From: an uncultured virus (IMG/VR IMGVR_UViG_3300031613_000001) | Taxonomy: Duplodnaviria; Heunggongvirae; Uroviricota; Caudoviricetes; Crassvirales | Direction: 5' to 3' (one strand) | DNA length: 64,000 nucleotides | IMG/VR virus record: IMGVR_UViG_3300031613_000001 | The notes under the pieces: model-generated | Databases searched by the model: none | Told to the model about the DNA's origin: nothing | What the model saw: the letters and a program-made list of their open reading frames with translations, nothing else | Position numbers and translations under genes: made by a program | Shown: piece after piece, positions 18,033 through 49,314 of the stretch | How positions within the stretch are numbered: the first letter of the stretch is position 1 | Layout: each line of letters begins with the position of its first letter

Positions 18033-18327
18033 CGTTTGTAATTTTTAACATTATAGCTTGTTCATATTCGTCAAACATATTTTCTTTATCAAATTGTCTA
18101 ACTGTTTTACCAAAGTTGTCAAGAGTTAATTTTAAACCTTCTTTTTTGATTTCATTAGCAAGTTTTACTACGTATTTAATACGCTTTGTAAGTTCACTTG
18201 TATGAAATTGCATATCAACTTGAGTTTGTCTACCTTTAGTTCTTTTACTATTATTAAAAAGTCTTTTAGGTATTTTATTACCGTTTTCATCTATTTTACC
18301 TCTACGTTGTTGTCTAGCTATCCCCAT
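18025..18327 (-). CDS. Basic hypothetical protein
   Basis: 100-aa ORF overlapping neighbours. Confidence 0.55.
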   Translation of the reverse strand: MGIARQQRRGKIDENGNKIPKRLFNNSKRTKGRQTQVDMQFHTSELTKRIKYVVKLANEIKKEGLKLTLDNFGKTVRQFDKENMFDEYEQAIMLKITNDE

Positions 18328-19729
18328 TTATAATAATTGTATTAGTTGTTAATATTGTTCCAGCTACTGCTATGGCATTTGTAATTGCACACTTAAGTAC
18401 TAGTGATGGATCGTATATTTTATTTTTAATTATTTCTTCTTTATCATAACAATTTAATATAGACCATGGATCATTAAGTGCTTTGATTAATATTTTGTTA
18501 TCAATTTTATCAGCTATTTCCATTGCTGTAATACCACCACCTAATATTATACCATCTAGTAAAGCTGACTTACATGCGTTTACTGCATCTTCTAACTTGT
18601 CATGTAATTCTCTATATTCTATTTCTGAACCTGCTCCTATGTTAATTATACTAATACCGCATTTAAATTTACTAAGTAATGATAATAGTTGTTCTATTTC
18701 ATAACCATCAGTAGATTTATCTAATTTAAATTTTAAAAATTTAATTCTTTGGTTTAATTCTTTATTTTCTATATTATCGTTATGGAATATTAACCTATTA
18801 TTTTTACCACTAAATGTTTTTACAAATCCATAATCTAAACCTTTGTAAAACTGTGTTGTATTTAATACTTTAGTAGCTCCTGTATAAGCTCTAATATTTT
18901 CAAGTGTTTCTAATCTACCAGATGAATAACCTGGAGATTTAATAAGTTTAATGTTCCAATGTTGTCTATTACTATATATTATCTTTTGAATGTCATTAGA
19001 AAATTCTTCTGCTATAATAATTATATTTTCATTTACATTTTTTATTTCTTGTAAGAAAACACTCATGGATCTTACGTTGTCAATTTTACCATCTATTGTA
19101 TAAACTCTAGAATATGATAAAGTATCTTCTGTATAATCATACTGAGAATTAAATACATTACCATCTGTTGAATAACCTTCAATAAATTCTGTTGTAGTTA
19201 CTTTATCTTTTGATTGGTCAAACAATACATCAGCGTCAATATTACTACTAAAAACTTTTAGTATTAGTTCTGATACATTTTTATCACCATTTGTTGATAC
19301 CATTGCAATATCATAAATGTCATCTATTGTACATTCTCTTTTATATTTATTTATATGATCTATTATTTGAGGTAAACAATCTTCTAGTTCTCTTTTAAGT
19401 ATAATACCATTAGTATTAGATTTAAATCCTTCTTCTATAATAGTTCTTGCAAACAACATTGAAGTAGTTGTACCATCACCAGCTTGTGTGTTAGTAAGAA
19501 GACACGCTTCTTTTAACATTTGTATAGCTTCATTTTCAAACCTATCTTTTGAACTAATTTCTTTTGCTACTGATACACCATCTTTAGTAATAAATCTACT
19601 ACCATCCGGTTGACTAATAATTACATTATGACCATTTGGACCGTATGTACTAAGAACAGCGTCTGCTATTTTTTTTGTACCTATTAGTAATTTTTCTCTA
19701 GCTTCTACGTTGCTTAATATTTTACTCAT
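18314..19729 (-). CDS. groEL: GroEL-like chaperonin
   Basis: STYGPNG.NVII, ITKDGVSVAKEI, AGDGTTT, EDAVNA.KSA...GI..GGG; start taken at MSKILSN. Confidence 0.9.
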   Translation of the reverse strand: MSKILSNVEAREKLLIGTKKIADAVLSTYGPNGHNVIISQPDGSRFITKDGVSVAKEISSKDRFENEAIQMLKEACLLTNTQAGDGTTTSMLFARTIIEEGFKSNTNGIILKRELEDCLPQIIDHINKYKRECTIDDIYDIAMVSTNGDKNVSELILKVFSSNIDADVLFDQSKDKVTTTEFIEGYSTDGNVFNSQYDYTEDTLSYSRVYTIDGKIDNVRSMSVFLQEIKNVNENIIIIAEEFSNDIQKIIYSNRQHWNIKLIKSPGYSSGRLETLENIRAYTGATKVLNTTQFYKGLDYGFVKTFSGKNNRLIFHNDNIENKELNQRIKFLKFKLDKSTDGYEIEQLLSLLSKFKCGISIINIGAGSEIEYRELHDKLEDAVNACKSALLDGIILGGGITAMEIADKIDNKILIKALNDPWSILNCYDKEEIIKNKIYDPSLVLKCAITNAIAVAGTILTTNTIIINGDS

Positions 19730-19988
19730 CTTCTTTTCCAAATATGTCTTCTGTTAGTTCTATAGATATTGTTACTTCTAAATCATTATTACTATACGTA
19801 TAAATCCCATTGCAAACAATATTTCTAAACTCTTGATCTGATATAAGACCTTCTTTTAATTCACTTCCCATTTCCCTGCCAAGAAAGTCTTCAAAAACTT
19901 CCTCAGCTTTTTCACGGGAAGTTACATTTTTAAAGTCTTCAACGGTATCCCAACCATCACTTTTATAATATGTAACTGTATAATTCAT
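19722..19988 (-). CDS. Hypothetical protein
   Basis: 88-aa ORF. Confidence 0.55.
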   Translation of the reverse strand: MNYTVTYYKSDGWDTVEDFKNVTSREKAEEVFEDFLGREMGSELKEGLISDQEFRNIVCNGIYTYSNNDLEVTISIELTEDIFGKEDE

Positions 19989-25168: not shown

Positions 25169-25451
25169 TTATGAAATTAATAATAGTTTCTTATTTTATA
25201 TACAATGGTATATTTAGATGTTTTCCAGAAATAGTAAATTTAAATTTTGATGTAAAAACAAGAATTGATTCTTTTAATAAGAAAAATGAATCTTTTGCAG
25301 ATAAATATAATTATATATCTAAATCTGCAAAAAACAAAAGAAACAAATACTAAAATAAAACGTTAAACCTATGACGTTGTGATTAAAAATTAAGGCTTTA
25401 ACAATGTATGGTAGATTGCCGTATGAATTAGCTACCATTAATCACTAAATA

Positions 25452-25475
25452 AAGATAGAATATAAATTGTAAAAT
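25452..25475 (+). repeat. 24-bp exact repeat AAGATAGAATATAAATTGTAAAAT (copy 2 at 25794-25817), candidate promoter
   Basis: Identical copies, each directly upstream of a structured non-coding segment. Confidence 0.7.
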
Positions 25476-25588
25476 TAAATATTACTCAGGAAGGGTGAGT
25501 CAATGGTTTCTCCTTAATTAATAAATTAAGTGATTCAAAAAGGGAAGTGACTTATATTTAAATTTTACATATTACATCTGTCAATTAC

Positions 25589-25625
25589 CTACATTCAACA
25601 GGTTGAAAAATGAGTGTAGTTTTTT
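25589..25625 (+). terminator. Terminator-like hairpin
   Basis: CTACATTCA...TGAGTGTAG followed by T6. Confidence 0.55.
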
Positions 25626-25819
25626 ATTAACTTAAATTATTGATAAATGGAAATAAAATGGGATAACGAATGTAAAAGATGTAGTACGGGATGTACACAT
25701 GATTATTGTCATGATTGTCAAATGTTAGGACATGACCCCAGTTTAAGTAATTATAACAAGAGAACTGAAACCGACTAGTTCTATAAATATTAGAAGATAG
25801 AATATAAATTGTAAAATCA

Positions 25820-26268
25820 TTAATTGTTGTGGCTCATTAGTGGGCTTCCTTGAAATTACATATTAAATCTTATCAAGTGTACCAACTGTATTGTAATATG
25901 TTGGTTGTGTATAAAGAGACACTAGTGCGTCACATCACTTTACACTACACTTAGGAGTTTACAGCAAGAGATATTAACGTAATAAATTAGATTAGAATTT
26001 ATAAAGCCTCTTAATACCTCGCGACCATTTATAATAGTGAAGACGGATGTCTTTTATGAGATTTACCTCTAGCAGCTATTATAGATGGTGCTAAACGCAA
26101 AGCGTGAAATCAGTAAAAATTGACTCATAGGTTTAATATAATCCCTAAAGAGGTGTAGTAGTGACTAAATTTAGAATAATATGTACTAAAAAGAAACATA
26201 CTAAAGGAAGAGCTGCAAGGGGATGAAACCTCGCTTATAAACATTAACTAATGGGCAGTTAGTTTTTT
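25820..26268 (+). ncRNA. Candidate large structured ncRNA (~440 nt)
   Basis: Six nested long-range helices from 25832/26256 inwards plus local hairpins; no credible ORF; ends in T-run. Confidence 0.6.
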
Positions 26269-26335
26269 ATTAATTAAACAATTTTATATTATGAGTAAAC
26301 AAGGAAAGATAGATTAACAAAATGTTAACATTAAC

Positions 26336-26784
26336 GGGGCTGACTGGTTTTGACCGCAATGTAAATATTAATAAACAGTAGTGAGTGATCACTTTAAATA
26401 TTGTAGATGAAATTTCTAAACGGAAATAAAATGAGTACGCAGGAAACTGCACAGGAAATGGCTAACATGAGTGTTGTTCACAACATTCTTAACGGATCTG
26501 ACGATCTAGTTGCACCAGTTGCAAAAGTTAAGTTAGCAATGGCAGCATAATGCCAACGGTGAAAAAAGCATTGTAGTAGCCATTATGTAGTAACTTATCA
26601 CAGAATGCTTGATATTCTGGTATGTCCAGATAGACCCGAAGTACATTAGTATAGTGAAGCTGTATGATAAGTTAATTTAATTTAGTATGAGTACCTAATG
26701 TAGAAGAAAACTATAAATTGAAAAACTGTATAATTTATTAATAATCAAATTGTTGGGACAGGGGTTCGACTCCCCTCAGCTCCA
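26336..26784 (+). ncRNA. ssrA: tmRNA
   Basis: 5' GGGGCTGACTGGTTTTGAC; 3' AGGGG-TTCGACT-CCCCT-CAGCTCC-A; G3:U70 alanine determinant; internal frame ending ...KLAMAA-TAA at 26550. Confidence 0.92.
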
Positions 26785-26907
26785 CAGACTTCGCCGTCTA
26801 AAAAGCTGTGCCAGCAGGATATCTGGCAAATATAACATCATCCAGAATTTTTAACACTTTTCTAGATTTGGGTAAGGTTATGTATAAAAGTGTACTATAT
26901 TGCAATT

Positions 26908-26944
26908 AAATAGAGTCTACAACTGTTTTGTAGGCTCTTATTTT
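26908..26944 (+). terminator. Terminator after tmRNA
   Basis: AGAGTCTACAA-CTGTT-TTGTAGGCTCT-TATTTT. Confidence 0.6.
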
Positions 26945-26959
26945 AAAACATAATATAAA

Positions 26960-27111
26960 TGCTTATTAGCTCAGTTAGGTAGAGCACTTGGAAAAGATAA
27001 CGCTACAAAATATATAGTAAAGAACTTTTTTACTAAAGTTGTTAATCTTTATATTTGTATAGATAATTTCTAAAATTCAGGATGTCACTGGTTCAAATCC
27101 AGTATAAGCAT
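26960..27111 (+). tRNA. tRNA-like gene with 85-nt insert replacing the anticodon loop; identity undetermined
   Basis: Acceptor TGCTTAT/ATAAGCA, D arm GCTC-AGTTAGGTA-GAGC, stem CTTGG/TCAGG, variable ATGTC, T arm ACTGG-TTCAAAT-CCAGT. Confidence 0.75.
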
Positions 27112-27152
27112 TTTTATATTAAAAATTAATTATTAACTTAAATTTTATAACC

Positions 27153-27344
27153 ATGAATCAATCAAATGTAGCCATTCAGGCGTATCAAAGAAAAGAAAGA
27201 GTAATTCGAGTATTTAAAATGAAATACATAGGTGATAGACCTACTTGTAAATCAGTAAGAGTTATTGCTAGCACATGTAGATTTAATAGATTAAATAACC
27301 GAATGAGAGCTGAATTAGTTTCTGATTTTGCTATATTTAAATAA
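27153..27344 (+). CDS. Small basic hypothetical protein
   Basis: 63-aa ORF with AT-rich leader. Confidence 0.5.
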   Translation: MNQSNVAIQAYQRKERVIRVFKMKYIGDRPTCKSVRVIASTCRFNRLNNRMRAELVSDFAIFK

Positions 27345-27354
27345 ATTTAAAATC

Positions 27355-27672
27355 ATGTTAGAAATGTATATTATTGGAAGTTGTATAATAATAATAATGA
27401 TATATAATATTTATTATTATAAAAAGTATATTATACAACCTAAATTAGAAGAAATATTAGCTGGTGGTATATATTCAGTAGTAAAAGTATCAGAAAATAA
27501 ATATTGTATAGTTAAAAATTTTTCTAAATATCAAGATCATACTGTTGTATTAGGACTTGATAATTATGAATGGTTTAAATGTAAATCAAATATGCTTACG
27601 GTAAACACAACTTATGTAAATTATTATGAAGCATTTGATAAAGCAAAAATATTAAATATGAAAAACAAATAA
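27355..27672 (+). CDS. Hypothetical membrane-anchored protein
   Basis: N-terminal hydrophobic helix; ATG at 27355. Confidence 0.5.
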   Translation: MLEMYIIGSCIIIIMIYNIYYYKKYIIQPKLEEILAGGIYSVVKVSENKYCIVKNFSKYQDHTVVLGLDNYEWFKCKSNMLTVNTTYVNYYEAFDKAKILNMKNK

Positions 27673-27697
27673 ATAAAATTAAATAAACAAAATCTTT

Positions 27698-27910
27698 AAT
27701 ATCGTTTCACTATGATAGAGACACGGTAGCTGTAACTACAACTTATCATAGCTTAAAGTAGACTCTAACCTTTGGTCTTTAAAACAATTGGTAAAGTGAC
27801 AATGCAAAACCATAATATCGGGATTTATCTATCTATCCCACTTCTCTAAACAGGTACATACCTGAAAGGTATTATGGTTAAGTATTGTTAATAAGTTTCA
27901 GATGGATATT
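27698..27910 (+). ncRNA. Candidate structured RNA (~210 nt)
   Basis: Helices 27710-27717/27744-27751, 27797-27805/27882-27890, 27808-27819/27868-27879 with two inner hairpins. Confidence 0.5.
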
Positions 27911-27917
27911 TTAAAAC

Positions 27918-27982
27918 AATTTGATGGTACTCATAAATGCTTTTACTCTGAACCATATACACAAAAAGAGTATTGTTTATAA
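27918..27982 (+). repeat. 65-bp direct repeat (copy 2 at 28577-28641, 3 mismatches)
   Basis: Duplicate of the 3' end of ORF 28369..28641; identity stops at the TAAC core. Confidence 0.9.
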
Positions 27983-28040
27983 CGGTTGGGCTATGTGTAG
28001 TGCCTTAAAAAAATACACTAACTTTTAAATAAAAACTAAA

Positions 28041-28253
28041 ATGAGTAAAGAGACACAAAACAACGAATTAAGTAATAACAAGGCATTACATATAGATAGT
28101 TTTAGCAACAGTACTCTCATTTACAATGCAATAAAAGAACAGACTAAAAGGAAAGTAGCTATAAGAAAAGGATGCCCAAACCAACAATGCTTTTGCACTG
28201 GTAAATGCCAAGAGATAATTGGATGGCGTGATAAGTTGCCAAATGAGTATTAG
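28041..28253 (+). CDS. Array ORF crossing an attC-like junction
   Basis: ATG inside hairpin A; KALHIDSFSNS is encoded by the right arm; Cys-rich body. Confidence 0.65.
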   Translation: MSKETQNNELSNNKALHIDSFSNSTLIYNAIKEQTKRKVAIRKGCPNQQCFCTGKCQEIIGWRDKLPNEY

Positions 28254-28368
28254 TATTGTTGCTAACGCTTGGGCTATGAATTGAAGCCCTAAACACAAAG
28301 TTCGATTCACAACAATAACCTTGACAGGGCTTTTATTTATAGCCTGTGTTATAAATTTTACGGAAATT

Positions 28369-28641
28369 ATGCGAGAAAGATTGCTAAACCCTAAAACATT
28401 GAACATAGAACTGGAAGCATTGCAAATCACAATTATAGATGGTGTTTCTTATAGAATATTTACTAAAAAATATACTTCTATTGATAACGGTAGTTGCCAA
28501 TGTTATAAAGATTGTAATTGCAGTAGTAAAAGAGGAACAATAACAAATACAGAAATAACTTGGTATAGAAATATTAAATTTGATAGTACTGATAAATGCT
28601 TTTACTCTGAACCATATACACAAAAAGAGTATTCTTTATAA
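28369..28641 (+). CDS. Array ORF, Cys-rich (start uncertain; frame open from within hairpin B)
   Basis: MRERLLNPK...CQCYKDCNC; stop coincides with TTTATAA core. Confidence 0.6.
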   Translation: MRERLLNPKTLNIELEALQITIIDGVSYRIFTKKYTSIDNGSCQCYKDCNCSSKRGTITNTEITWYRNIKFDSTDKCFYSEPYTQKEYSL

Positions 28642-28832
28642 TGTAAAGTATAACAATAGTAAAGGATTAATAAACTAAAATTAAATATTATGAAAGAAAG
28701 TGAGCCAATGAATTGGACTAAAAGACAAACACAGTATTATGGTGGATTTTTGGCGGTGTTAGGATTGCTAATTGAAATATTTGGAACGACGATAGTTATT
28801 GATGTTATACAGTGTTATCAAATCGTTTTTTT

Positions 28833-29027
28833 ATGTTTAGAATAACCAAAGTAGATAAAGGATGGATAGTTGAAATACTTGAATTTAAATACAATTTTTT
28901 AGGATTACATTTTTGCCAAGTTTGGAAACCTTATATTAAGACTTCGGGAATGGATGAATGTTGGGGACACCTTACAAAGGACTACGCAATCATGAACCTT
29001 ATAGACCAAGTTAAAAAAGACACTTAA
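28833..29027 (+). CDS. Array ORF, hypothetical
   Basis: MFRITKVDKGWIVE... begins just after GTTATCA core at 28814. Confidence 0.55.
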   Translation: MFRITKVDKGWIVEILEFKYNFLGLHFCQVWKPYIKTSGMDECWGHLTKDYAIMNLIDQVKKDT

Positions 29028-29069
29028 GGTATAAGGATTGATTTTTAACCGATTAAACAAATAAATATT

Positions 29070-29321
29070 ATGACAACACAAGAAAAATTAAACAATGTAT
29101 TAGGCTATTTAATAGCAATGTCTTTTGATAAGCCAGAATTAAGTAATGCCTTAGTAGAACCTCTAAACACTTTAAGTGAAGCAATAAGCGAGGTTGAAAA
29201 TTTGTCTTTATCTGGTGTTGTGAACTGTTTGTCCTGCGGTAAAAACCACGCTGAACTTTGTGGAAGCTGTGTATTTGATATTGCACAAGGAACAGCAGAA
29301 CAGGCAATAAGTAGCAGGTAA
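29070..29321 (+). CDS. Array ORF crossing an attC-like junction
   Basis: ATG inside hairpin D; VENLSLSGVVNC encoded by right arm with GTT=Val; CxxC...CxxC body. Confidence 0.65.
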   Translation: MTTQEKLNNVLGYLIAMSFDKPELSNALVEPLNTLSEAISEVENLSLSGVVNCLSCGKNHAELCGSCVFDIAQGTAEQAISSR

Positions 29322-29404
29322 ATTGTTTACAACGAACGAGATTAGAAATTAAAGAAATTGCAAGTAAAATAAAGTAATGAAAAAACTAATAGACATAAAA
29401 GCAA

Positions 29405-29698
29405 ATGAAGAATGATACAAAAATAGTAAATAATATAGATAGAATAAAACCAATTTTAAATATTCTTTCTACTGATGTAAAAAATATAATATTTGAAAAC
29501 GTAAGAGTATTTAAAGATAATCAAGTAGCAATGTTTGTTTTAGTTATAAGTTATTATCAATATGTACAACATTCAGATTTAATATACGACAAACAATCAA
29601 TAAAAGAATATATTATTAAAAAAAATATTCAAAATATATATGTTACATTAGACTCAGATGAAAAAAAACCCTATATTCAAATAATAATAAGCGTATAA
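29405..29698 (+). CDS. Hypothetical protein
   Basis: 97-aa ORF; IKPI.N.L motif shared with 29930..30250. Confidence 0.55.
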   Translation: MKNDTKIVNNIDRIKPILNILSTDVKNIIFENVRVFKDNQVAMFVLVISYYQYVQHSDLIYDKQSIKEYIIKKNIQNIYVTLDSDEKKPYIQIIISV

Positions 29699-29699
29699 T

Positions 29700-29927
29700 A
29701 TGGATATTTTAAAAGCATTATTAAAGGTTACATTTGATGGACCTAAAGAAGAAATTAACAAAGTAAACAAAAAACAACCTAGTAATTCTTCAACATCAAA
29801 TACATGTATTAATTGTGTTAATGTAGTAGAATTAAAATCATCACCCAATCTTTGGTGTTATTTAACTAGTGATGATGTAAATGAAAATTACAGTTGTCTT
29901 GATTTTGAAAAATCAAAAATAAATTAA
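29700..29927 (+). CDS. Small Cys-containing hypothetical protein
   Basis: CINC...WC...SC..F. Confidence 0.55.
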   Translation: MDILKALLKVTFDGPKEEINKVNKKQPSNSSTSNTCINCVNVVELKSSPNLWCYLTSDDVNENYSCLDFEKSKIN

Positions 29928-29929
29928 TT

Positions 29930-30250
29930 ATGACAAAAAAAATAAATAATAATAAAAATAAAAAAACTTTAGATGTAAACGTATCAACATTTATAAATAA
30001 TATTAAACCTATATTTAATTTATTAACAGGGTTTAATATAAATATGGATTCTGATACAAGTAAAGATTATACATATGCTTTAGTTTCATTTGAAGCTGAA
30101 AACAATAATAATAATAAAAGATTATTATCATCATTTATTGATAAATCTAGTTCTATTTTGGATAAAAATTTTGAAAATGTTTATACTTCAAAATATACTA
30201 AAGATGGTAAACTATTGGAAGCATCAATATACTATGATAAAGGACTTTAA
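29930..30250 (+). CDS. Hypothetical protein
   Basis: 106-aa ORF. Confidence 0.55.
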   Translation: MTKKINNNKNKKTLDVNVSTFINNIKPIFNLLTGFNINMDSDTSKDYTYALVSFEAENNNNNKRLLSSFIDKSSSILDKNFENVYTSKYTKDGKLLEASIYYDKGL

Positions 30251-30294
30251 ACTAAGGTTGTTAATTTTTTATTAGACTTTTTAAAAACAAAAAT

Positions 30295-30684
30295 ATGAAA
30301 GACAAAATAATTAGTTTTAAAACAGCTAAATTAGCTAAAGAAAAAGGGTTTGATATACCACAATTAAAAAGATATTTGTTAGATCAACATAATAATCATT
30401 GTCTTGCAAATAATAAAGGTTTACAAAATATAGGAATACAAGCACCAACACAATCTCTACTACAAAAATACTTAAGAGAAAAACATAATTTACATATTCA
30501 AGTACAAATAGGGGGGTATATAAATGGTAAAAATACAGCTTATTGTAATGTTTTTAAATTTGGTAAAACTTTATGGATTAGTAAATTTAGAAGTAAAACA
30601 TCTATATATACTTATGAAGAAGCTTTAGAAATAGGATTACAAGAAGCATTAAAATTAATAAAAAATGGAAAAAAAATGAAATAA
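30295..30684 (+). CDS. Hypothetical phage protein
   Basis: ISFKTAKLAKEKGF...APTQSLLQKYLRE.H...TYEEALEIGL. Confidence 0.7.
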   Translation: MKDKIISFKTAKLAKEKGFDIPQLKRYLLDQHNNHCLANNKGLQNIGIQAPTQSLLQKYLREKHNLHIQVQIGGYINGKNTAYCNVFKFGKTLWISKFRSKTSIYTYEEALEIGLQEALKLIKNGKKMK

Positions 30685-32602
30685 TAAAACTTACATATAT
30701 GATTTAGAAACATATAAAGATTTATTTCTTGCTACTTTTAAATGTATTGATACAAATGAATTTTGAAGATTTGAAATAAGTAAATATAAAACAGAAATTA
30801 AAAAACTGTATGAATTTCTTGAACAAAGAAATATAACTTTAATAGGTTATAACAATGTTAACTTTGATTATCCTGTATTACACAATACAATACTTAGACG
30901 TAAACGTAGATGAACATCAGAAGATATATATTATGAAGCTCAAAATATCATTGAAGCAGAGTATTCAGCTATATGGGATAGTGAAACAAAGATACCTCAG
31001 ATAGATTTATTTAGGATTAAGCACTATGATAACAAGGCACGTAGAACATCTCTTAAATGGCTTGAATATGCTATGAGAATGAATGATATTCGTGATTTAC
31101 CTTATCCACCAGGAGACTCTTTAACAAGAGAAATGATGGATGAGATAATATCTTATTGTGATCATGATGTTAATGCTACACATCTATTTTATAAGCTTTG
31201 TGAAAAGGATATAGAGCTTAGGTTGCAGTTATCAAAACAATATGGATTAAATCTTACTAATGCTAATGATCCTAAGATTGGTAGTGAGATCTTTTTAGAT
31301 TTATTATCTAAGGAAATGAATATTGATAAAAAGGAACTTAAAGAAAAGCGTACTTACAGAAAAAGAATTGATTTTAGTGAAATAATACTTGATTATATTA
31401 AGTTTGAAACACCTGAAATGAATAGCGTTCTTGATGGATTTAAAAGCTATAGAGCAATAGATACAAAGGGAGACTTTAAGTTTACTGGTAAAATTGGTAA
31501 TATATATAATGACTTTGGTCAAGGTGGTATTCACGGTTGTACTAAATCTGGTATTTATGAAAGTGATAGCAAAAAAGTTATTATAGATATTGACGTTGCA
31601 AGTTATTATCCTAATTTAGCTATTAACAATGGTTTTAGACCACAACATTTAGGAGATGCATTTAGTAAAATTTATAAAAGTATTTACGAGCTCAGGAAAA
31701 CATTTCCAAAATCAGATCCTCGTAATGCTGCATGTAAGTTAATGCTCAATGGTGCATTTGGTAAGATGAATGATGTTTATAGTTTTTTATATGATCCTAA
31801 GTGTTTATTAAGCATAACTCTTAACGGTCAGTTATTACTAGCAATGTTAATGGAAAAGATAAACAGTAACGTTAGTGATATTGAATTTCTTCAATCTAAT
31901 ACAGATGGTTTTACTTTTCTTATTGATAGAGATAAAGTAGAATATATGAAGAAGATAGTAACTGCATGGGAAAAGAAAACTGAACTTGTTATGGAGTATG
32001 CTATTTATGATAAAATGATTATACGTGATGTTAATAATTATATGAGTGTTACAGACACTGGTTATATTAAGTATAAAGGTTGTTTTGAAATGGATAGGGA
32101 CTATAATAAGAATCACAGTAAAAGGATTGTACCTATTGCTTTAGCTAACTACTTTATAAACAATGTAGATCCTGAATTTACATTATATAATCATTTAACT
32201 AAGTTTAAAAGTGATATAGTAAAATCTGATTATGAGTTTTGTAAAAACTATGGAATACACGACTTTTGTTTAGCCGTTAAAATGACAGGTCAAAACAAGC
32301 TTGTAAGAAGAATTGTAAAAGACTATCAACCAGAAGATCACAAGTTAGGTAAGGTAACAAGATATTATATTTCTAATGATGGTAATATGCTTGTTAAAAA
32401 ATTACCACCATTACCTGATAAAACACCTACTATGCAAATTAATATCTTTAATGAAGTTGATATGGGTGATAGAGAATCAAGTATAGAAGCTGGTTATGAT
32501 AGCACAGTTTTCAATAAATATTATGATAGTGATAATTATAATATTAATTATGACTATTATTTAAGAGAAATAAACAAAATTATTAACGTAATAAAAAATT
32601 AA
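30665..32602 (+). CDS. polB: Family B DNA polymerase, 645 aa if TGA=Trp (TGA at 30677, 30764, 30911)
   Basis: ExoI YIYDLET and ExoII GYNNVNFD lie upstream of the called ORF in the same frame; ExoIII YCDHDV; DVASYYP, KLMLNGAFGK, NTDG, YKG. Confidence 0.9.
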
Positions 32603-43409: not shown

Positions 43410-44183
43410 ATGTCAAAAAAGAAAACAGTAGTAGGAATTTTAGCTCATAATCATTTTGGTAAATATCAACCAGGATATGGTCAAAATGCAGCTTATATTC
43501 ATTTTGCAAGAAGCTTTGATGCTGATGTAATAATGATAGATGCTCAAAATGAATCTATTATTCCAGTTGATCTTCTTATTTTACCAGGAGGTAGAGATGT
43601 AAATCCACTTAGATATGGTGAACGACCACATTATATGACTGATTCTCCAGATATGGAATATGAAGCATTTTATGATAAAAATTTAGGTGCTATAAATGGT
43701 TATATTGAACGTGCTGAAAAAGGATTAACTGCTATATATGGTATATGTGCAGGTTTTCAGAATTTAAATGTTCACTTTGGTGGTACAATAGTTCAACATG
43801 TTAATAATGATAGATCAACTACATTTAGAGGAGAACTTGTTGATGATTTAGAATCAGTAGTAGAAAATTTTCCAAAAGATTATATTGGCATAAAAAGTCC
43901 TTTTAATAAAAAAGAAAAATTGAGTTATACATATAATATACCTGGTTTATTTAAAACTAACTCAATTCATCATCAAGCAATTTTTAGTCATAATCTTTCT
44001 GATCATTTTTTACCATTAGCTTATGATTGTAAACATGGTAATATTGAATTTATGATTCATAAAGAATTACCTATAGCTGCTGAACAATCTCATCCGGAAG
44101 AAAGAGAAAATCCTTTTGTGGCAATTGGTATTATTAACACATTATTAAATAGAATACAAAAAAATGAAAAAAGAGAAAATTAA
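43410..44183 (+). CDS. Class I glutamine amidotransferase / peptidase C26
   Basis: LILPGGRDVNP..YG, GICAGFQ.LNV.FGG, NSIHHQA, QSHPE. Confidence 0.88.
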   Translation: MSKKKTVVGILAHNHFGKYQPGYGQNAAYIHFARSFDADVIMIDAQNESIIPVDLLILPGGRDVNPLRYGERPHYMTDSPDMEYEAFYDKNLGAINGYIERAEKGLTAIYGICAGFQNLNVHFGGTIVQHVNNDRSTTFRGELVDDLESVVENFPKDYIGIKSPFNKKEKLSYTYNIPGLFKTNSIHHQAIFSHNLSDHFLPLAYDCKHGNIEFMIHKELPIAAEQSHPEERENPFVAIGIINTLLNRIQKNEKREN

Positions 44184-44811
44184 AATATTTACGTTATATG
44201 CGTATCTTACTGTACAGTATTTAGATTTTTTTAGTGATAAATATGACGTTGTAATAACTGAAGATCCTAATGAAGAAGATATAACCATTGCTTTATTTAC
44301 AGGTGGTGAAGATGTTAATCCTGATTATTATGGTGAAAGTATTGGATCAAGTACTTTTATTAATATTAAAAGAGATACTTTAGAACAAGAAGCTTTTAAT
44401 AGTTTATCACCACATATTTTAAAAGTTGGTATTTGTAGAGGATCTCAATTTTTAACTGTGATGAATAATGGTAGATTAATTCAACACGTTAGTGGTCACG
44501 GACAAAGTCATGATGTTATAGATAAAGAAGAAAATATTTTTGAAGTTACATCTACTCATCATCAAATGATGTATCCTTTTGATTTAGATAAATCTGAATA
44601 TGAAATAATAGCAACTTCTAAAATTAATATTTCTGAAAAATATCTTGATGGTAATGATCAAGAAATTAATTTAAGTAAGGATTTTAAAGAATGCGAAATT
44701 GTTTATTATAATAAAACAAAAAGTCTTGCTATTCAAGGTCATCCTGAATTTAATTATGCTACTGATGAATTTAAAAAATATTGCTATAACCTAATCGACA
44801 AATTATTATAA
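44164..44811 (+). CDS. Class I glutamine amidotransferase / peptidase C26 (second)
   Basis: FTGGEDVNP..YG, GICRGSQ, TSTHHQM, QGHPE. Confidence 0.88.
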   Translation: MKKEKIKIFTLYAYLTVQYLDFFSDKYDVVITEDPNEEDITIALFTGGEDVNPDYYGESIGSSTFINIKRDTLEQEAFNSLSPHILKVGICRGSQFLTVMNNGRLIQHVSGHGQSHDVIDKEENIFEVTSTHHQMMYPFDLDKSEYEIIATSKINISEKYLDGNDQEINLSKDFKECEIVYYNKTKSLAIQGHPEFNYATDEFKKYCYNLIDKLL

Positions 44812-44812
44812 T

Positions 44813-45676
44813 ATGAATTTAGAAAAAAAATATGAATACAAAAATTTAACAATTGGATCTGATCCTGAAATTTTTGTTAGAGATGTTAAAACTAAAAAAT
44901 TAGCATCTATAATAGGTATCATCAATGCTACAAAAGAAGAACCTTTATCAATTGGTGAAGGTTGTTTTATTCAAGAAGATAATATACTCGCTGAGTTTAA
45001 TATCCCAGCTTGTAAAACTAAAGAAGCGTTTGTTAGTGCAATGAATTATGCAAAATCGCATATTGAATTGATAATAGCACCTCGTGGTTTAGAGCTTCAT
45101 TATGCAAGTAGTGAAAAAGTAAATAATGATATTTTAAAAGATAAAGCTGCTCATGTATTTGGATGTGCTTCATCATATAATTGTATTACTGAAAAACCTT
45201 CTAATATGGAAGATTTAGATACATCTAAATTAAAAATGAGATCTTCTGGTTTTCATATTCATTTTGGTTGGGAAAATCCAACTGAAGAACAGAGAGACAG
45301 ACTTTGTATGATGTTTGAATTAGGAGTTTCATTACCTTTAATTTTAGAAGATAATGATTATTATAATAGAAGATCTTTATATGGTAAATTTGGAGATTCT
45401 AGAGATAAAGATTATGGTGTTGAATGCAGATCTTTAGGAGGTTATTTTTTAAAAGATGAAGAAAGTATCAGTAACATATGGGATAGATCTTTAATGGCTG
45501 TTAAAATGGCTGAAGAATGGGATATATCTAATGAAGATCTCAGAAAAGATATATTAAAATATTTAAATCCAGAAAAAGAAGAATTGGATTTAGATAAAAT
45601 TAATATACTTGTTGAGAAATACGAAATAAAAAAATTAATTCAAAAATACAAAATAAAAGAATATGTTAATATTTAA
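44813..45676 (+). CDS. phiEco32-like COOH-NH2 ligase
   Basis: IGSDPEIF, QEDNILAEFN, FGC, RSSGFHIHFG, RRSLYG..G..R.K.YGVECR. Confidence 0.85.
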   Translation: MNLEKKYEYKNLTIGSDPEIFVRDVKTKKLASIIGIINATKEEPLSIGEGCFIQEDNILAEFNIPACKTKEAFVSAMNYAKSHIELIIAPRGLELHYASSEKVNNDILKDKAAHVFGCASSYNCITEKPSNMEDLDTSKLKMRSSGFHIHFGWENPTEEQRDRLCMMFELGVSLPLILEDNDYYNRRSLYGKFGDSRDKDYGVECRSLGGYFLKDEESISNIWDRSLMAVKMAEEWDISNEDLRKDILKYLNPEKEELDLDKINILVEKYEIKKLIQKYKIKEYVNI

Positions 45677-47786
45677 TATAGTACTTACATGTTTAATACT
45701 TCAAATGTTATTAAATATTTTTAGTATTAATAAACAAAAAGAAACACTTTCTTGTGGAATATTTGGATGGACAGGTTCTGAATCTTCATTATTTGACATA
45801 GATAAATTTAAAATATTAGGTATATTAAACCAATCTAGAGGTAAAGATTCATGTGGTGTATATATGAATGAAGAACTTTACAAGGGTGACAATATAGGAA
45901 CTAATAACGAGGCTTTATTTACAGATATGATGATTCATCAGAAACTAAAAATTGAAAAAGAATCTAAAATTGTAATTGGTCATACTAGAAATTCATCAAG
46001 AGCTGGTATTAAAAGTGTAGATAATACACATCCTTTTATGTTTGAAATAGAAAATAATCATAATTTTATAGGTGCTCATAATGGTACTCTTGACAATCAT
46101 GTTTTTCTTGCTGAAAAATATGATATTAAACTTACAGATAATAATGGAAGAGTTAAAGTAGATAGTGAAATATTATTAGAAATAATATCTAAAACTACTT
46201 CTGATAATCCTCATTATATTAAAGTTTTACAAGAATATAAAGGAGCAGCTGCTTTAGTTATGCATTCTACTAAAGATCCTGATATAATGTATGTTTATAG
46301 AGGTAGATCTAAAAAGTTTGATTATAGTACTTCTCAAATACAAGATGAAAGACCTTTACATTACTGGAATAATTCTAAATCAAGTATGTATTTTTCTTCA
46401 GATTATGAACCTCTTGAGCTTATTGCTAATAAAAAACACAATGAAAAAGATTCTAACATATTTACATTTAAATCAAACGTTTTATATACTATTAAAAAAG
46501 GTGTTATAATAAGTATGAATGAAATAGATAGATCTAAAAACAAAAAGTATATTAGTATGCATGAGTTTAAATCTCAATCTAGAAATAATAACAAAAAGAA
46601 AAACATTTTTGTTAGAAAAACTGATACTTATGTTAATAAGCAACCTAATAGATCTAAAAATATCATGTATAAATCAGAAAGCGAAAAGATGAGAGAAAAT
46701 GTTATTTCTAACATGTCTAATGAAGAAGCTAATATATGTAAAAGTATTTTTTATGAAAAAGTTATTAGAAATGAAAAAAATGTTAAAAATAACAGAATTT
46801 ATTTTGAAAATTTTAGATATAAACAAAATGGTAAATTTCCAGCTGACGGTGCTTATATTCACTCTGATAATAATGGTTTTGTTTTCTTAAGTAAAAGTAT
46901 TACTGAAGCTAAAGAAAAACTTAAGAAATTATCAATAAAAGATAGTGAAACTAGTTCTTTAGTTACTATACATAATGCAGATTTAGATTTATTTTATATT
47001 GTTGATGGTATTTTACTTAATAAAGAACTTGATTATAAAATTATTACAGAAAGAGGTGTTGATAAATATACTGTTATTGATCTTTCACATATGAGTATGT
47101 ATCCTATTACTAGTTATTATGAACCATCTTATTTGAAAAATAAAAAAGATACTCTTTTATACAAAGAACATAATCTTACTAAAAATCAAATTTTAAGAAA
47201 TGGTAAGTATGTTAAATCTGAAAGTATTCAACCTATATCTTCTACTTACATTTATATAATAAAAGATGGTATAATAAGTAATTCTTTTTATAATCAAGTA
47301 TGGAATAGTACCAAACAATATAAAGTTTTAAAAAATGGTAAAGTAAATGTTACAAACGCTTATAAACCTATATTACCAGTAGTAATTAAAAATCCTAATA
47401 GTGGTACTTTTGAAATTAATGTAAATTCTTTAATTAGTGAAAAAATAAAAGATGAAAATATTGATGATGAAGAAATTGAATTTTTAGAAAATGATAATAA
47501 AAAAGATAAATTAAAATATTCATTATCGGATTTTAAAGAAACTATAGAAAGTGCATTAGAGTTAGGTGTAGAAATATCTAATGATAATTATGATGATAAT
47601 GAAGTTGCAATGACTTTATTTCATTTTTGTCAAAATTTAGAAGATATTTATAATCCTATGAAAAAATGGTTAGATAATTATTTAAGTTTGGATAATAATC
47701 TTGAAATTGATGAATATGATGAATATTATGATGATGAAGAAGTAATGTTTATAGAACAAAAACGATTTAATACTACTGGTAACTAA
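45663..47786 (+). CDS. Class II (Ntn) glutamine amidotransferase with hydrophobic leader and long C-terminal extension
   Basis: CGIFG at residue 31, RGKDSCG, GHTR, NTHPF, AHNGTL, VDSE, ERPL. Confidence 0.82.
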   Translation: MLIFNIVLTCLILQMLLNIFSINKQKETLSCGIFGWTGSESSLFDIDKFKILGILNQSRGKDSCGVYMNEELYKGDNIGTNNEALFTDMMIHQKLKIEKESKIVIGHTRNSSRAGIKSVDNTHPFMFEIENNHNFIGAHNGTLDNHVFLAEKYDIKLTDNNGRVKVDSEILLEIISKTTSDNPHYIKVLQEYKGAAALVMHSTKDPDIMYVYRGRSKKFDYSTSQIQDERPLHYWNNSKSSMYFSSDYEPLELIANKKHNEKDSNIFTFKSNVLYTIKKGVIISMNEIDRSKNKKYISMHEFKSQSRNNNKKKNIFVRKTDTYVNKQPNRSKNIMYKSESEKMRENVISNMSNEEANICKSIFYEKVIRNEKNVKNNRIYFENFRYKQNGKFPADGAYIHSDNNGFVFLSKSITEAKEKLKKLSIKDSETSSLVTIHNADLDLFYIVDGILLNKELDYKIITERGVDKYTVIDLSHMSMYPITSYYEPSYLKNKKDTLLYKEHNLTKNQILRNGKYVKSESIQPISSTYIYIIKDGIISNSFYNQVWNSTKQYKVLKNGKVNVTNAYKPILPVVIKNPNSGTFEINVNSLISEKIKDENIDDEEIEFLENDNKKDKLKYSLSDFKETIESALELGVEISNDNYDDNEVAMTLFHFCQNLEDIYNPMKKWLDNYLSLDNNLEIDEYDEYYDDEEVMFIEQKRFNTTGN

Positions 47787-47799
47787 TAAAAATAATAAA

Positions 47800-49314
47800 A
47801 TGATAGTTAAAACCTATAATGGTAAAAATATCGATAAATTAAAATGTCGAAAAATTAAAAATGAATATTATGAAATAGGTAATATTGAAGTTAAAAATAG
47901 TGGAGGATGTTATAAAGTAAATAATAAGTATCACAGATTTAATAATGGTCTTATTGAATATGATCACGAAAATAAATCTTATGTATTAGTAAATAAACAA
48001 CTTTTAACAAAAGGTATTATTAATATAAATGATGATGATACTTTTGAATTAGGTTTTTTTAGTCCAAATGTTACTGAAAATATAAAAGTTTCATTAGATA
48101 AATTTTCTTTTCAAACATGTATTAATAAAAATGTATTAAATAATAATTACTTAGAGCATTATAACACTGGTGTTTTTTACAAAAAAGATATGATGTCAAA
48201 ATCATCTTTTAAAAAAATTGGAAAAGCACCTGTAGATAAAAATACTTTAAATTATGATAGTAGATTTGTTAGTAAAATGATTGAAAAATCATATTCTGAT
48301 TATTATAAACCTTCCACTAAAAATAAAATGGTAGAAGAATTTGGATTATTATTAGAAAAAAATGGTATCACTTTTGGTCTTGAATTTGAAACATCTAGAG
48401 GTTATTTACCAGATAGATTATGTTATAAACATGGAATAATAGCATTGAGAGATGGTAGTATTTCAGGTTTAGAATATGTAACAGTACCTTTATCTGGTAC
48501 AAAAGGTTTATACAATGTTATGGAAATTTGTAATCTGTTAAAAGAAAGAACACAATACGATTATAATTGTTCATTACACCTTCATTTAGGTGGTCTTAAA
48601 AGAACTCCTAATAATATTCTTGCTATTAATAATATATCAACTTTATTAGAACGTGATATTTATTCTTTACAACCTTTGTATAAAGAAATTTCTACAAATT
48701 ATGATAAAAATAAAAATTATAGTGGTCCTATGAATACTACTTCATTAGAAATAATGATGGATTATAAAAATACTGATATTAAAAAACTTAAACAAATTGC
48801 TTTTGATAATTTATTTAGTGGTTTATCAGGAGGTTATACTTTTTCCGAATTTGGTGAAGATTTAGCCAATGTAAATAAACATCCTAAAGATCCTAATGGT
48901 ACTTCTAAATGGAATATTAAAGCTAGGTATGTGTGGTTTAATATGATACCTATTATATTTACTAATATGAAAACTGTTGAATTTAGACAACATAACAATA
49001 CTTTTGATTTTTTTAAAATATTTCATTTTATGTTAATGTCATCTGTAATTGTAGTTTCTGCTAATAAGTTAGAAAATAAATTTAATGACCCTAAATTTTT
49101 AAAATCCTTTAGCAAACTTAATAATAAATATAGTTCACTTTTAAAGCTTCTTAATAAAAAAGCTCCTGAATTTAGTAATTTACTTTGTGATAGTAATCAA
49201 AAATATTTTGATGAAAGAGTTGAAGTAATGAAAGAAATGAACAAAAAAGATCCCAAAGGTCTTAGTGAACATTCTTATTATAGTAGTTTTACAGATTCAG
49301 TAATTGAAAAATAA
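47800..49314 (+). CDS. Putative amidoligase (COOH-NH2 ligase fold)
   Basis: TFGLEFET, DGSISGLEYVT.P, CSLHLH, RY.WFN, TVEFRQH. Confidence 0.82.
   Translation: MIVKTYNGKNIDKLKCRKIKNEYYEIGNIEVKNSGGCYKVNNKYHRFNNGLIEYDHENKSYVLVNKQLLTKGIININDDDTFELGFFSPNVTENIKVSLDKFSFQTCINKNVLNNNYLEHYNTGVFYKKDMMSKSSFKKIGKAPVDKNTLNYDSRFVSKMIEKSYSDYYKPSTKNKMVEEFGLLLEKNGITFGLEFETSRGYLPDRLCYKHGIIALRDGSISGLEYVTVPLSGTKGLYNVMEICNLLKERTQYDYNCSLHLHLGGLKRTPNNILAINNISTLLERDIYSLQPLYKEISTNYDKNKNYSGPMNTTSLEIMMDYKNTDIKKLKQIAFDNLFSGLSGGYTFSEFGEDLANVNKHPKDPNGTSKWNIKARYVWFNMIPIIFTNMKTVEFRQHNNTFDFFKIFHFMLMSSVIVVSANKLENKFNDPKFLKSFSKLNNKYSSLLKLLNKKAPEFSNLLCDSNQKYFDERVEVMKEMNKKDPKGLSEHSYYSSFTDSVIEK

Follow-up and report, generated by a model that had tools for sequence, protein, structure and literature searches.

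A probable decaying array of integron-like cassettes, without a recombinase gene, in a crAss-like phage

We analysed a 64,000-nucleotide (nt) stretch of DNA from an uncultured crAss-like virus of a salt lake (IMG/VR record IMGVR_UViG_3300031613_000001), hereafter the window, and found at 27894-29334 what is probably a recombinase-less, decaying mini-array of an integron-like system, consisting of four cassettes (K1-K4) and a remnant (K0). The phage carries the array as a foreign insert within its hypervariable early region. The system to which the array belongs would circulate among phages whose hosts are Flavobacteria-type bacteria of marine and saline habitats. Each of its cassettes has a folded site of the coding strand at its start and ends at the next TAAC. 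Integrons are thought to need an IntI-specific domain for folded attC sites and are regarded as bacterial, whereas the system described here shares the integron logic yet has a plain Xer-like enzyme, phage carriers and reversed genes that start within the sites. To this the window adds a decaying enzyme-less array within a crAss-like genome, community evidence, drawn directly from depth and contig breaks, of single cassettes occurring in many genomes, and a tested link of the sites to one recombinase clade. If true, this would explain mechanistically how small early and accessory genes turn over fast in marine and saline phages, and would provide a gene-flow route between unrelated phage families and a simple test bed for the evolution of single-strand site recognition by tyrosine recombinases.

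An initial annotation, made from the sequence alone, had described the region as a row of attC-like folded sites that delimit mobile modules, with four hairpins (A-D) and a last core. All five features were present when the coordinates were re-derived by script (Table 1), with the arms of site C extended and the register of site D shifted. In site A the arms (27991-28006/28080-28095) are paired at 16 of 16 positions, including two G.T pairs, and enclose a 73-nt loop that contains an ATG at 28041. Its 3' core is degraded, with GTTTTAG in place of TGTTAGC and the loss of a G. Site B has arms at 28270-28290/28326-28346, paired at 20 of 21 positions around a 35-nt loop, and its open reading frame (ORF) begins downstream of the site. 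The arms of site C reach from 28648-28662 to 28796-28810 with 14 of 15 positions paired, longer than first described, and enclose a loop of 133 nt with an ATG at 28690; its 5' core has AAT for AAC. The arms of site D (29029-29046/29196-29213) are paired at 16 of 18 positions, five of them G.T, in a register about 3 nt off the one first described, and are followed by GG-TGTTG, with an ATG at 29070 in the loop. The assignment of site D is supported by two observations: a partner with at least 16 of 18 pairs is found at just 8 of the 485 TGTT sites of the window (1.6%), and metagenome contigs show a canonical TAACG plus spacer before the D cassette. Only site B is intact and A, C and D are degraded; the decay already suspected for several sites lies in the 3' core of A, the 5' core of C, and the 5' core and spacer of D. 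The ORFs of A, C and D begin within the loop and run through the 3' core, in agreement with the initial annotation. In addition, sites A and B have a common 27-nt direct repeat (D5) that runs from the end of the preceding gene across the AAC core into the left arm, and the module ends TTAGCAACAGTACT and AGTATTGTTGCTAA, earlier described as complementary, are so at 13 of 14 positions.

The sites follow a layout that recurs in other loci, including the downstream neighbours of K1 relatives. An element begins with 5'-nnTAAC|G and a spacer of about 5 unpaired nt, continues with an imperfect stem of 13-24 bp around a loop of 6-149 nt, and closes with the 3' core TGTTA-3', which pairs with the 5' core; its total length is 67-192 nt. 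In class I sites the loop carries an A-rich leader, an ATG and the first 13-40 codons, so that translation continues across the right arm and the 3' core. The ORF of a class II site starts only beyond it. When 57.8 kb were scanned for AAC followed by a stem (13 or more pairs, one mismatch allowed), 55 matches lay on the plus strand, 32 of them with GTT within 6 nt after, and 20 on the minus strand, 4 of them with such a GTT. Alignment of 17 class I elements yielded 21 pairs, with compensatory changes in 13 (RNAalifold) and a covariation score of 0.58 versus 0.16. Paired cells amounted to 94.4%, compared with 71.6% in shuffled alignments (reached in 0 of 500) and 26-46% with the partner slid, a percentage that is partly circular because the elements had been selected by a stem-requiring scan; sites B and C and the matches at recombinase loci described below are independent of that selection. 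The R box TAACG/TGTTA is essentially invariant, and G.T is conserved at three pairs (17/17, 16/17 and 13/17), so that the opposite strand would hold C.A mismatches. The conserved G.T pairs would make the fold strand-specific and may be the equivalent of extrahelical bases; no conserved bulged bases were seen in the 17-element alignment.

A covariance model, R1, was built from the 17 elements, site A among them. Run over the window with filters off, it gave 112.8 bits for A (as a training member), 55.7 bits for B (E 1.6e-8) and 24.4 bits for C (E 0.024), and nothing beyond these three fell below E 0.4; site D gave a weak 11.7 bits (E 7.5). In 33 loci R1 found 48 matches at E<=0.1, all on the plus strand and restricted to AT-rich phage-like loci with close cassette relatives, and zero matches in distant loci and in the corresponding region of G002, a complete relative of the window phage. 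The whole-genome count was 0 in G002 and 5 in another complete genome, G006. An ATG inside the site with an ORF of at least 10 codons beyond the 3' core occurs in 28 of the 43 elements. Reading of the 3'-core GTT falls in phase 0 for 21 elements, in phase 1 for five and in phase 2 for two, and such varied reading of an invariant GTT indicates a constraint on the nucleic acid, not the protein. We conclude that A, B and C are members of one covarying, strand-specific structured family and that D is a decayed member.

Taken singly, the sites fold with only partial significance. Compared with shuffles, site B gave an RNA z of -4.7 on the plus strand and -2.9 on the minus strand, and a DNA z of -2.4; site A gave an RNA z of -1.55, and sites C and D were at chance level with z about 0. 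Folding energies by themselves distinguish site B only. The motif TTGTTNNNAACG occurs three times in the 64 kb, all on the plus strand, all in the array and each just after a stop codon, versus 0.34 expected; three occurrences were reached in 0 of 100 shuffles, the pattern itself having been defined from two of its three occurrences. A looser motif, TGTTNNNAAC, is not enriched in the window (16 versus 16.75 expected). Chance inverted repeats in AT-rich DNA, together with ordinary paralogous gene ends, would explain why C and D singly fold no better than shuffles, why TGTTNNNAAC is unenriched, and why a lax scan gives 50 AAC-stem-GTT candidates on the plus strand of the window. This explanation is extremely improbable, being already contradicted by the R1 E-values of B and of dozens of elements elsewhere, the stem covariation, the complete strand bias and the recurring exact breakpoints.

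The breakpoints were located with DNA fetched round relatives of the 70-amino-acid (aa) gene of K1, comprising 8 viral and 31 metagenome loci. Similarity to the window is limited to one block, K1, at 80-99% nt identity; K2, K3 and K4 were found in none of the fetched loci. The block ends on the right at 28267 in nine loci and at 28266 in one, and on the left at 27969-27980 in nine loci. At the left join only nnnnAAC is common to eight different contexts (TTATAAC, ACATAAC, TGATAAC, TCTGAAC, ATACAAC, TGCTAAC, CCCTAAC and CGCTAAC), which are followed by the invariant GGTTGGGCTATG. At the right join, at least ten different sequences follow ...GCTAAC|G. Homologues therefore do switch partners with breaks at the AAC/GTT cores, the point on which the initial annotation had staked its reading beforehand. 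In three loci (L036 with 98.8% identity, L039 and L019) the similarity begins at the 3' core of site A (28102-28104), and in L037 and L038 it begins at 28018-28019.

Pairwise comparison of 43 elements (861 pairs) scored the upstream flank (U), the site (H) and the downstream body (D) as similar (+) or different (-). Site and body are kept with a different upstream flank in 32 pairs (U-H+D+), and one upstream cassette is followed by different next sites in 45 pairs (U+H-D-). Another 24 pairs (U-H-D+) all represent two site lineages on the 70-aa body, with a site identity of 0.60-0.68 and a body identity of 0.87-0.96. A site parted from its downstream body (U-H+D-) and a site tied to the upstream cassette (U+H+D-; L017_533/L019_4194) were each found in one pair. 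This pattern indicates that a site is usually exchanged together with its body, through a join at the 5' AAC. The 3' core is a less frequent point of exchange: at the DNA level, the body of L036 is 100% identical to that of L032 but the site is absent, and at the protein level, P0011 and P0013 have long unrelated N-termini that join exactly before the Val (GTT) codon. Head/body swapping is therefore real but secondary. The interchangeable N-terminal heads proposed earlier do not hold as the main unit, which is the whole cassette joined at the 5' AAC|G (32 + 45 pairs), and survive as a minority represented by L036, P0011, P0013 and the two site lineages on the 70-aa body. The pair L018_398 and L034_1494, considered as a clean head/body swap, turned out to be a weak example only, because the similarity extends about 15 nt beyond GTT and the loops have diverged.

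The stretch is present in 24 salt-lake metagenome runs, none of them listed as RNA, four of which (X8, X10, X13 and X17) were compared over 27000-30800, as assembled contigs and not raw reads. The depth of K1, K2 and K4 exceeds that of the backbone in most runs, and K3 is at backbone level (Table 1). Contigs end at 27979/27984, 28257-28267, 28629-28648, 29031 and 29333/29334, and their loose ends enter other sequences. K2 contigs cover 28264-28648 with loose ends on both sides, and K4 contigs cover 29031-29333/4, with a depth of 23-47 in X8 and X10 where the backbone has 6-9. One of the loose ends corresponds to the upstream context in L029, and another is a canonical TAACGTATTAG before site D (29031). 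The abundant community variant of K1 has a canonical 3' core, from which the window copy differs at 28096, 28098, 28099 and 28101. Contigs at backbone depth bridge the backbone to K0, K2-K3-K4 (one spans 28604-29060) and K4 to the backbone, indicating that the array is really in this phage. As a separate observation, one low-depth contig (X8, depth 2) leads from 30684 back to 27391 through 38 additional letters, and may be a gene-order variant of a relative or a tandem or circular form.

No recombinase family was found among the 49 + 15 ORFs of the window, as the initial annotation had stated, and no PF00589 match was found in the complete relative G002; G006 is likewise without such an enzyme. 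The search it had suggested for a tyrosine recombinase succeeded in other phages, namely L017/L018 and seven further viral contigs. L017 and L018 represent one HK97-type phage in two variants, distinguished by a single cassette exchanged between two TAAC joins, ...GCTAAC|G and ...CTAAC|TACAATATA. A 276-aa tyrosine recombinase is encoded on the same strand, starting 62-63 nt beyond the last TAAC join. It matches PF00589 and PF13495 and falls below every curated NCBIfam cut-off, with scores of 152 bits on XerC, 152 bits on XerA and, in two stretches, 128 bits on the integron integrase TIGR02249 (cut-off 265). A profile of this enzyme and 12 short relatives best fits the solved XerA (209 bits), and its match to IntI4 (2A3V) splits into two pieces. 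Judging from these profile matches, the linked enzyme is a compact Xer-like recombinase of 264-289 aa without the IntI insert, and not an integron integrase.

A scan with the single recombinase protein found L017/L018 only. Viral contigs were scanned with the recombinase profile, giving 80 loci that were then searched with R1; most of these loci are distant integrases, because the profile scan used very general motifs. In the 80 loci R1 gave 31 matches, every one of them upstream of the recombinase gene and on its strand (+). The matches per locus were 10 in L064, 7 in L073, 6 each in L065 and L066, and 2 each in L071, L072 and L075. Among the nine best-matching recombinase loci with upstream DNA, seven bear sites, with 2-10 sites each and none downstream. 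Of 11 loci inspected, 7 have a TAAC at a distance of 56-63 nt ahead of the recombinase start codon. This terminal TAAC reads ...TGCAnnTAAC upstream of the recombinase genes of L017 (1000-1051), L064, L070, L072, L073 and L075, and is a candidate attI-like site.

Based on the layout, the join points, the strand specificity and the enzyme link, we propose that the Xer-like recombinase would act on the coding strand in its folded form, cutting it at the 5' AAC and exchanging cassettes as IntI does at attC, and that the rarer exchange at the 3' GTT would yield N-terminal swaps. The virulent-looking crAss-like phage may have acquired its array from a recombinase-bearing donor. It would be unable to move the array itself, so that sites A, C and D would be degrading, and their decay fits an array that is no longer serviceable. 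At the attP of CTX phage, a Xer-type enzyme acts on a hairpin of single-stranded phage DNA; unlike here, the whole phage integrates at dif and there are no cassette arrays. A broader proposal, possible and still tentative, is that phages of Flavobacteria-type hosts, among them virulent crAss-like ones, have a common pool of one-gene cassettes, moved by a compact Xer-like enzyme on folded single-stranded DNA sites. As these sites would also be translation-start modules, occasional 3'-core exchange would combine N-terminal leaders with different protein bodies, and phages that lack the enzyme would use the pool in trans at co-infection. If true, such a pool would be a natural generator of protein chimeras as well as a gene-trading system.

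Several points weigh against the integron-like reading. Cassette recombination itself is inferred, not observed; no deletion or circle joints at cassette edges were seen in the contigs of the four runs, and the left-right pairings of metagenome contigs could be chimeric across a shared cassette. The recombinase link rests on seven contigs plus L017/L018, and R1 found no sites in cultured phages with 33-37% identical integrases, namely Cellulophaga phage Ingeline_1 (16 kb round its integrase) and Polaribacter phage Freya_1. Breakpoints at both hairpin ends (L036; L017_533/L019_4194) are unpredicted by a one-strand integron mechanism. The cores are off RYYYAAC/GTTRRRY and no conserved extrahelical bases were seen. 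Finally, the G.T pairs on the mRNA strand and the loops with translation starts fit an RNA role equally.

This last point leads to the main rival, in which the sites are regulatory RNA or DNA hairpins (for mRNA processing or stability, translation-start modules, or weak terminators plus promoters) that serve as recombination linkers similar to the PeSLs of T4-type phages, with no dedicated enzyme. The mutual similarity of the sites would then drive homologous or microhomology recombination between co-infecting phages. We consider this rather unlikely, although much of the layout suits it. The sites sit between small early genes, it is the mRNA strand that folds, with conserved G.U pairs of a kind typical for RNA, the loops of 28 of the 43 elements have an A-rich leader and an ATG, and neighbouring sites share up to about 25 nt (AGTATTGTTnnTAACGsTTGGGCTATG). 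Breakpoints fall at the two ends of the hairpin and, within site A, at 28016-28019 and 28051, which agrees with it as well, as does the lack of a tyrosine recombinase in most carriers examined, including two complete genomes (G002-type backbone and G006). The joins themselves speak otherwise: they share only 3-5 nt (nnTAAC|G), with the upstream otherwise unrelated in L027, L035 and L032, which is too short for homologous exchange, and no chimeric left arms were seen. The tight one-strand arrays upstream of one recombinase clade are left unexplained by regulatory hairpins. Scans for sigma-70 promoters and generic terminators were silent at the sites, the host promoter type differing from sigma-70, and the Bacteroidota-type -7 box (TAnnTTT[GT]) was found, weakly, in only 4 of 17 loops.

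The precedent for such linkers is given by Arbiol et al. 2010 (PMC2839356), who describe PeSLs as promoter plus stem-loop units with modular shuffling and mini-circles. Similar to the sites here, PeSLs in that description are short conserved stem-loops between small non-essential phage genes that mark the points of insertion, deletion and replacement of modules between related phages. They differ in being units of a sigma-70 promoter and a terminator that use homologous recombination, and in that description they have neither a linked recombinase nor AAC/GTT cores, and ORFs do not run through them.

The comparison with integrons concerns both the sites and the enzyme. An attC site folds into an imperfect hairpin, some 57-141 nt long, whose outer (R) and inner (L) boxes are paired, whose loop is variable and in which conserved extrahelical bases mark the recombining strand, and IntI has an extra domain near patch III. 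The sites in the array have this type of architecture, with a paired R box, a 5-nt spacer, a stem of 13-24 bp and a variable loop; C and D exceed the usual length range. Like integrons and CALINs, the system has co-oriented one-gene cassettes bounded by imperfect hairpins that fold as single strands, paired AAC/GTT cores, an unpaired spacer, a variable loop and joins at the core adjoining the hairpin, as seen from the joins of K1 at AAC|G and the contig breaks. In the relatives a tyrosine recombinase gene stands beside the array after the terminal core, as in integrons, and enzyme-less arrays occur. The window shares with the relatives the coding-strand site at the 5' end of the cassette; the downstream recombinase is absent from the window and from G002. 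An IntI with its insert was found neither in the window nor in G002, and the enzyme of the relatives, Xer-like and of 264-289 aa, is without it. In contrast to integrons, conserved G.T pairs replace obvious extrahelical bases, the ORFs point to the recombinase gene on the folding strand and many start in the site, and the carriers are phages. The attC likeness first claimed thus holds for AAC/GTT and fails for the strict consensus of R'' RYYYAAC and R' GTTRRRY (PMC9892861), as the flanks differ (TTATAAC, TGCTAAC, TTACAAC; GTTATAA, GTTAGCA).

True attC sites, in cassettes that came from a bacterial integron and are recognised by a classical IntI of the host, would have an identical layout of AAC...GTT cores, paired R box, unpaired spacer and variable loop over 67-192 nt. 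Phage CALINs are also on record: Qi et al. 2023 (PMC9892861) report them in 17 phages, including a Polaribacter phage and also virulent ones, and IntI1 recombined five of the six phage CALIN sites tested. Such an origin is nevertheless very unlikely here, because the cores (TTATAAC, TGCTAAC; GTTATAA) fail RYYYAAC/GTTRRRY, the strand bearing the ORFs behaves as the attC bottom strand and the ORFs begin within the site, the sole linked enzyme is without the IntI insert, and R1 is silent in Polaribacter phage P12002L.

The Bacteroidales clusters of rAID-1, from gut bacteria (Ross et al. 2019, 10.1101/471110), belong to the same phylum and likewise place a XerD-family tyrosine recombinase beside co-directional low-GC small genes. 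According to the criterion given there, the XerD-like recombinase is >44% identical to BF9343_RS08045 and lies 5' of co-directional low-GC genes. The differences, as far as its published description goes, are that the recombinase is 5' of the array and that the cargo consists of immunity genes. Its repetitive intergenic sequences, compared here by description only, are reminiscent of integrons according to its authors. Of the systems compared, rAID-1 is nearest in phylum and enzyme type, integrons and CALINs are nearest in logic, and PeSLs are the nearest phage precedent. Searches of open-licence PMC and bioRxiv papers found no description of the present system.

Table 1. Sites, cassettes and terminal core of the array, with contig depth in four salt-lake runs
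Feature	Coordinates	Strand	Description	Depth X8	Depth X10	Depth X13	Depth X17
Site A	27973..28110	+	class I; 5' core TTATAAC|G ending 27984; 3' core GTTTTAG				
Site B	28256..28357	+	class II, intact; 5' core TGCTAAC|G; 3' core TGTTA 28347-28351				
Site C	28632..28823	+	class I, decayed; 5' core TATAAT|G; 3' core TGTTA 28813-28817				
Site D	29029..29220	+	class I, decayed; 3' core TGTTG 29216-29220; 5' core and spacer lost				
Last core	29323-29334	+	TTGTTTACAACG; true cassette-end motif				
K0	27902..27982	+	26-aa ORF, 3' remnant of a 90-aa-family cassette				
K1	27985..28267	+	site A and 70-aa Cys-rich ORF 28041-28253; ends TTGTTGCTAAC|G	96-131	97-125	18-26	49-72
K2	28268..28648	+	site B and 90-aa ORF 28369-28641	95	37	25	67
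K3	28649..29030	+	51-aa membrane-like ORF 28690-28845 and overlapping ORF 28833-29027	about 8	0.4-4	4-6	0.1-3
K4	29031..29334	+	site D and 83-aa ORF 29070-29321; terminal motif TTGTTTACAAC|G 29323-29334	23-29	38-47	4-6	4-8
Backbone				about 8.6	about 4-6	about 2-4	about 0-5

The cassettes encode small proteins. The 70-aa protein of K1 has 21 homologues with a conserved Cys-rich C-terminal part (CPNQQCFCTGxCQEIIGWRDK) and variable N-termini; a tblastn search with it against cultured phages gave zero matches, and its AlphaFold model is poor (pLDDT 68). The 90-aa protein of K2 has 16 colinear homologues. Scans for its family gave two weak irrelevant matches in genome contigs and, in viral contigs, the window's own phage only, and its AlphaFold model (pLDDT 83) had no match below E 0.6 in the PDB. 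In K0, positions 27918-27982 form a 65-nt repeat (D1) of 28577-28641 with 95% identity, indicating that the 26-aa ORF represents the tail of another 90-aa gene copy, and the K0 peptide aligns with the C-terminus of the 90-aa family. The second ORF of K3 is in another frame and begins at the 3' core of site C. PHROGs and Pfam searches with 15 small ORFs matched only phrog_12005 (a 129-aa ORF) and DNA polymerase, and blastn of 27000-30500 against cultured phages gave zero matches.

The phage of the window is AT-rich (about 27% GC) and crAss-like, with Pfam matches of its ORFs to Crass_capsid (602 bits) and to crAss auxiliary capsid and tail-ring proteins. Its DNA polymerase has its nearest cultured-phage relative in Cellulophaga phage phi14:2 (40.7% identity). 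The complete relative G002 has 100,482 bp with terminal repeats and a polymerase 81% identical to that of the window. The array is located in the leftward part of a plus-strand early/replication block, flanked by a transfer-messenger RNA (tmRNA) and a structured non-coding block on one side and by the polymerase on the other. G002 has no DNA similarity to window 27893-30700, where different small ORFs occupy the place of the array. These are five unrelated small ORFs in the G002 region L002 7463-9609, which also has an ORF with a GIY-YIG homing endonuclease-like N-terminus as read by eye. A second variable patch of small ORFs lies at 25352-25946 (L026 1-690), and a metagenome contig identical to the window over 25946-29129 has indels just upstream of that.

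The tmRNA lies at 26336-26787 on the plus strand (Rfam RF00023, 53.8 bits; ARAGORN tag peptide AKVKLAMAA), and its 5' part is 75% conserved at the nt level in G002. Rfam at the gathering threshold and at E<=1 found only this tmRNA and one chance match in the window. Directly after the tmRNA comes the structured non-coding block, 27759-27893 on the plus strand (L002 7310-7447), with an RNA fold z of -4.66, 77% nt identity to G002/G004, four compensatory pairs and no Rfam match. Its 3' end (AGTATTGTTAATAAG) is similar to the cassette-end motif and adjoins the array, of which it may be the entry point. On the other side, the DNA polymerase ORF (31073-32602) spans only positions 183-652 of phrog_1252 (window 30700-32602; L002 9602-11512). 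The N-terminal part is found upstream in another frame, in the window and in G002, and the match of phi14:2 is likewise in two pieces, which could reflect a split gene, an intron or a frameshift. Elsewhere in the window, Pfam matches place a Cpn60-like chaperonin gene at 18314-19741 on the minus strand, and a cluster of glutamine amidotransferase, amidoligase and COOH-NH2 ligase genes at 43410-49314 on the plus strand.

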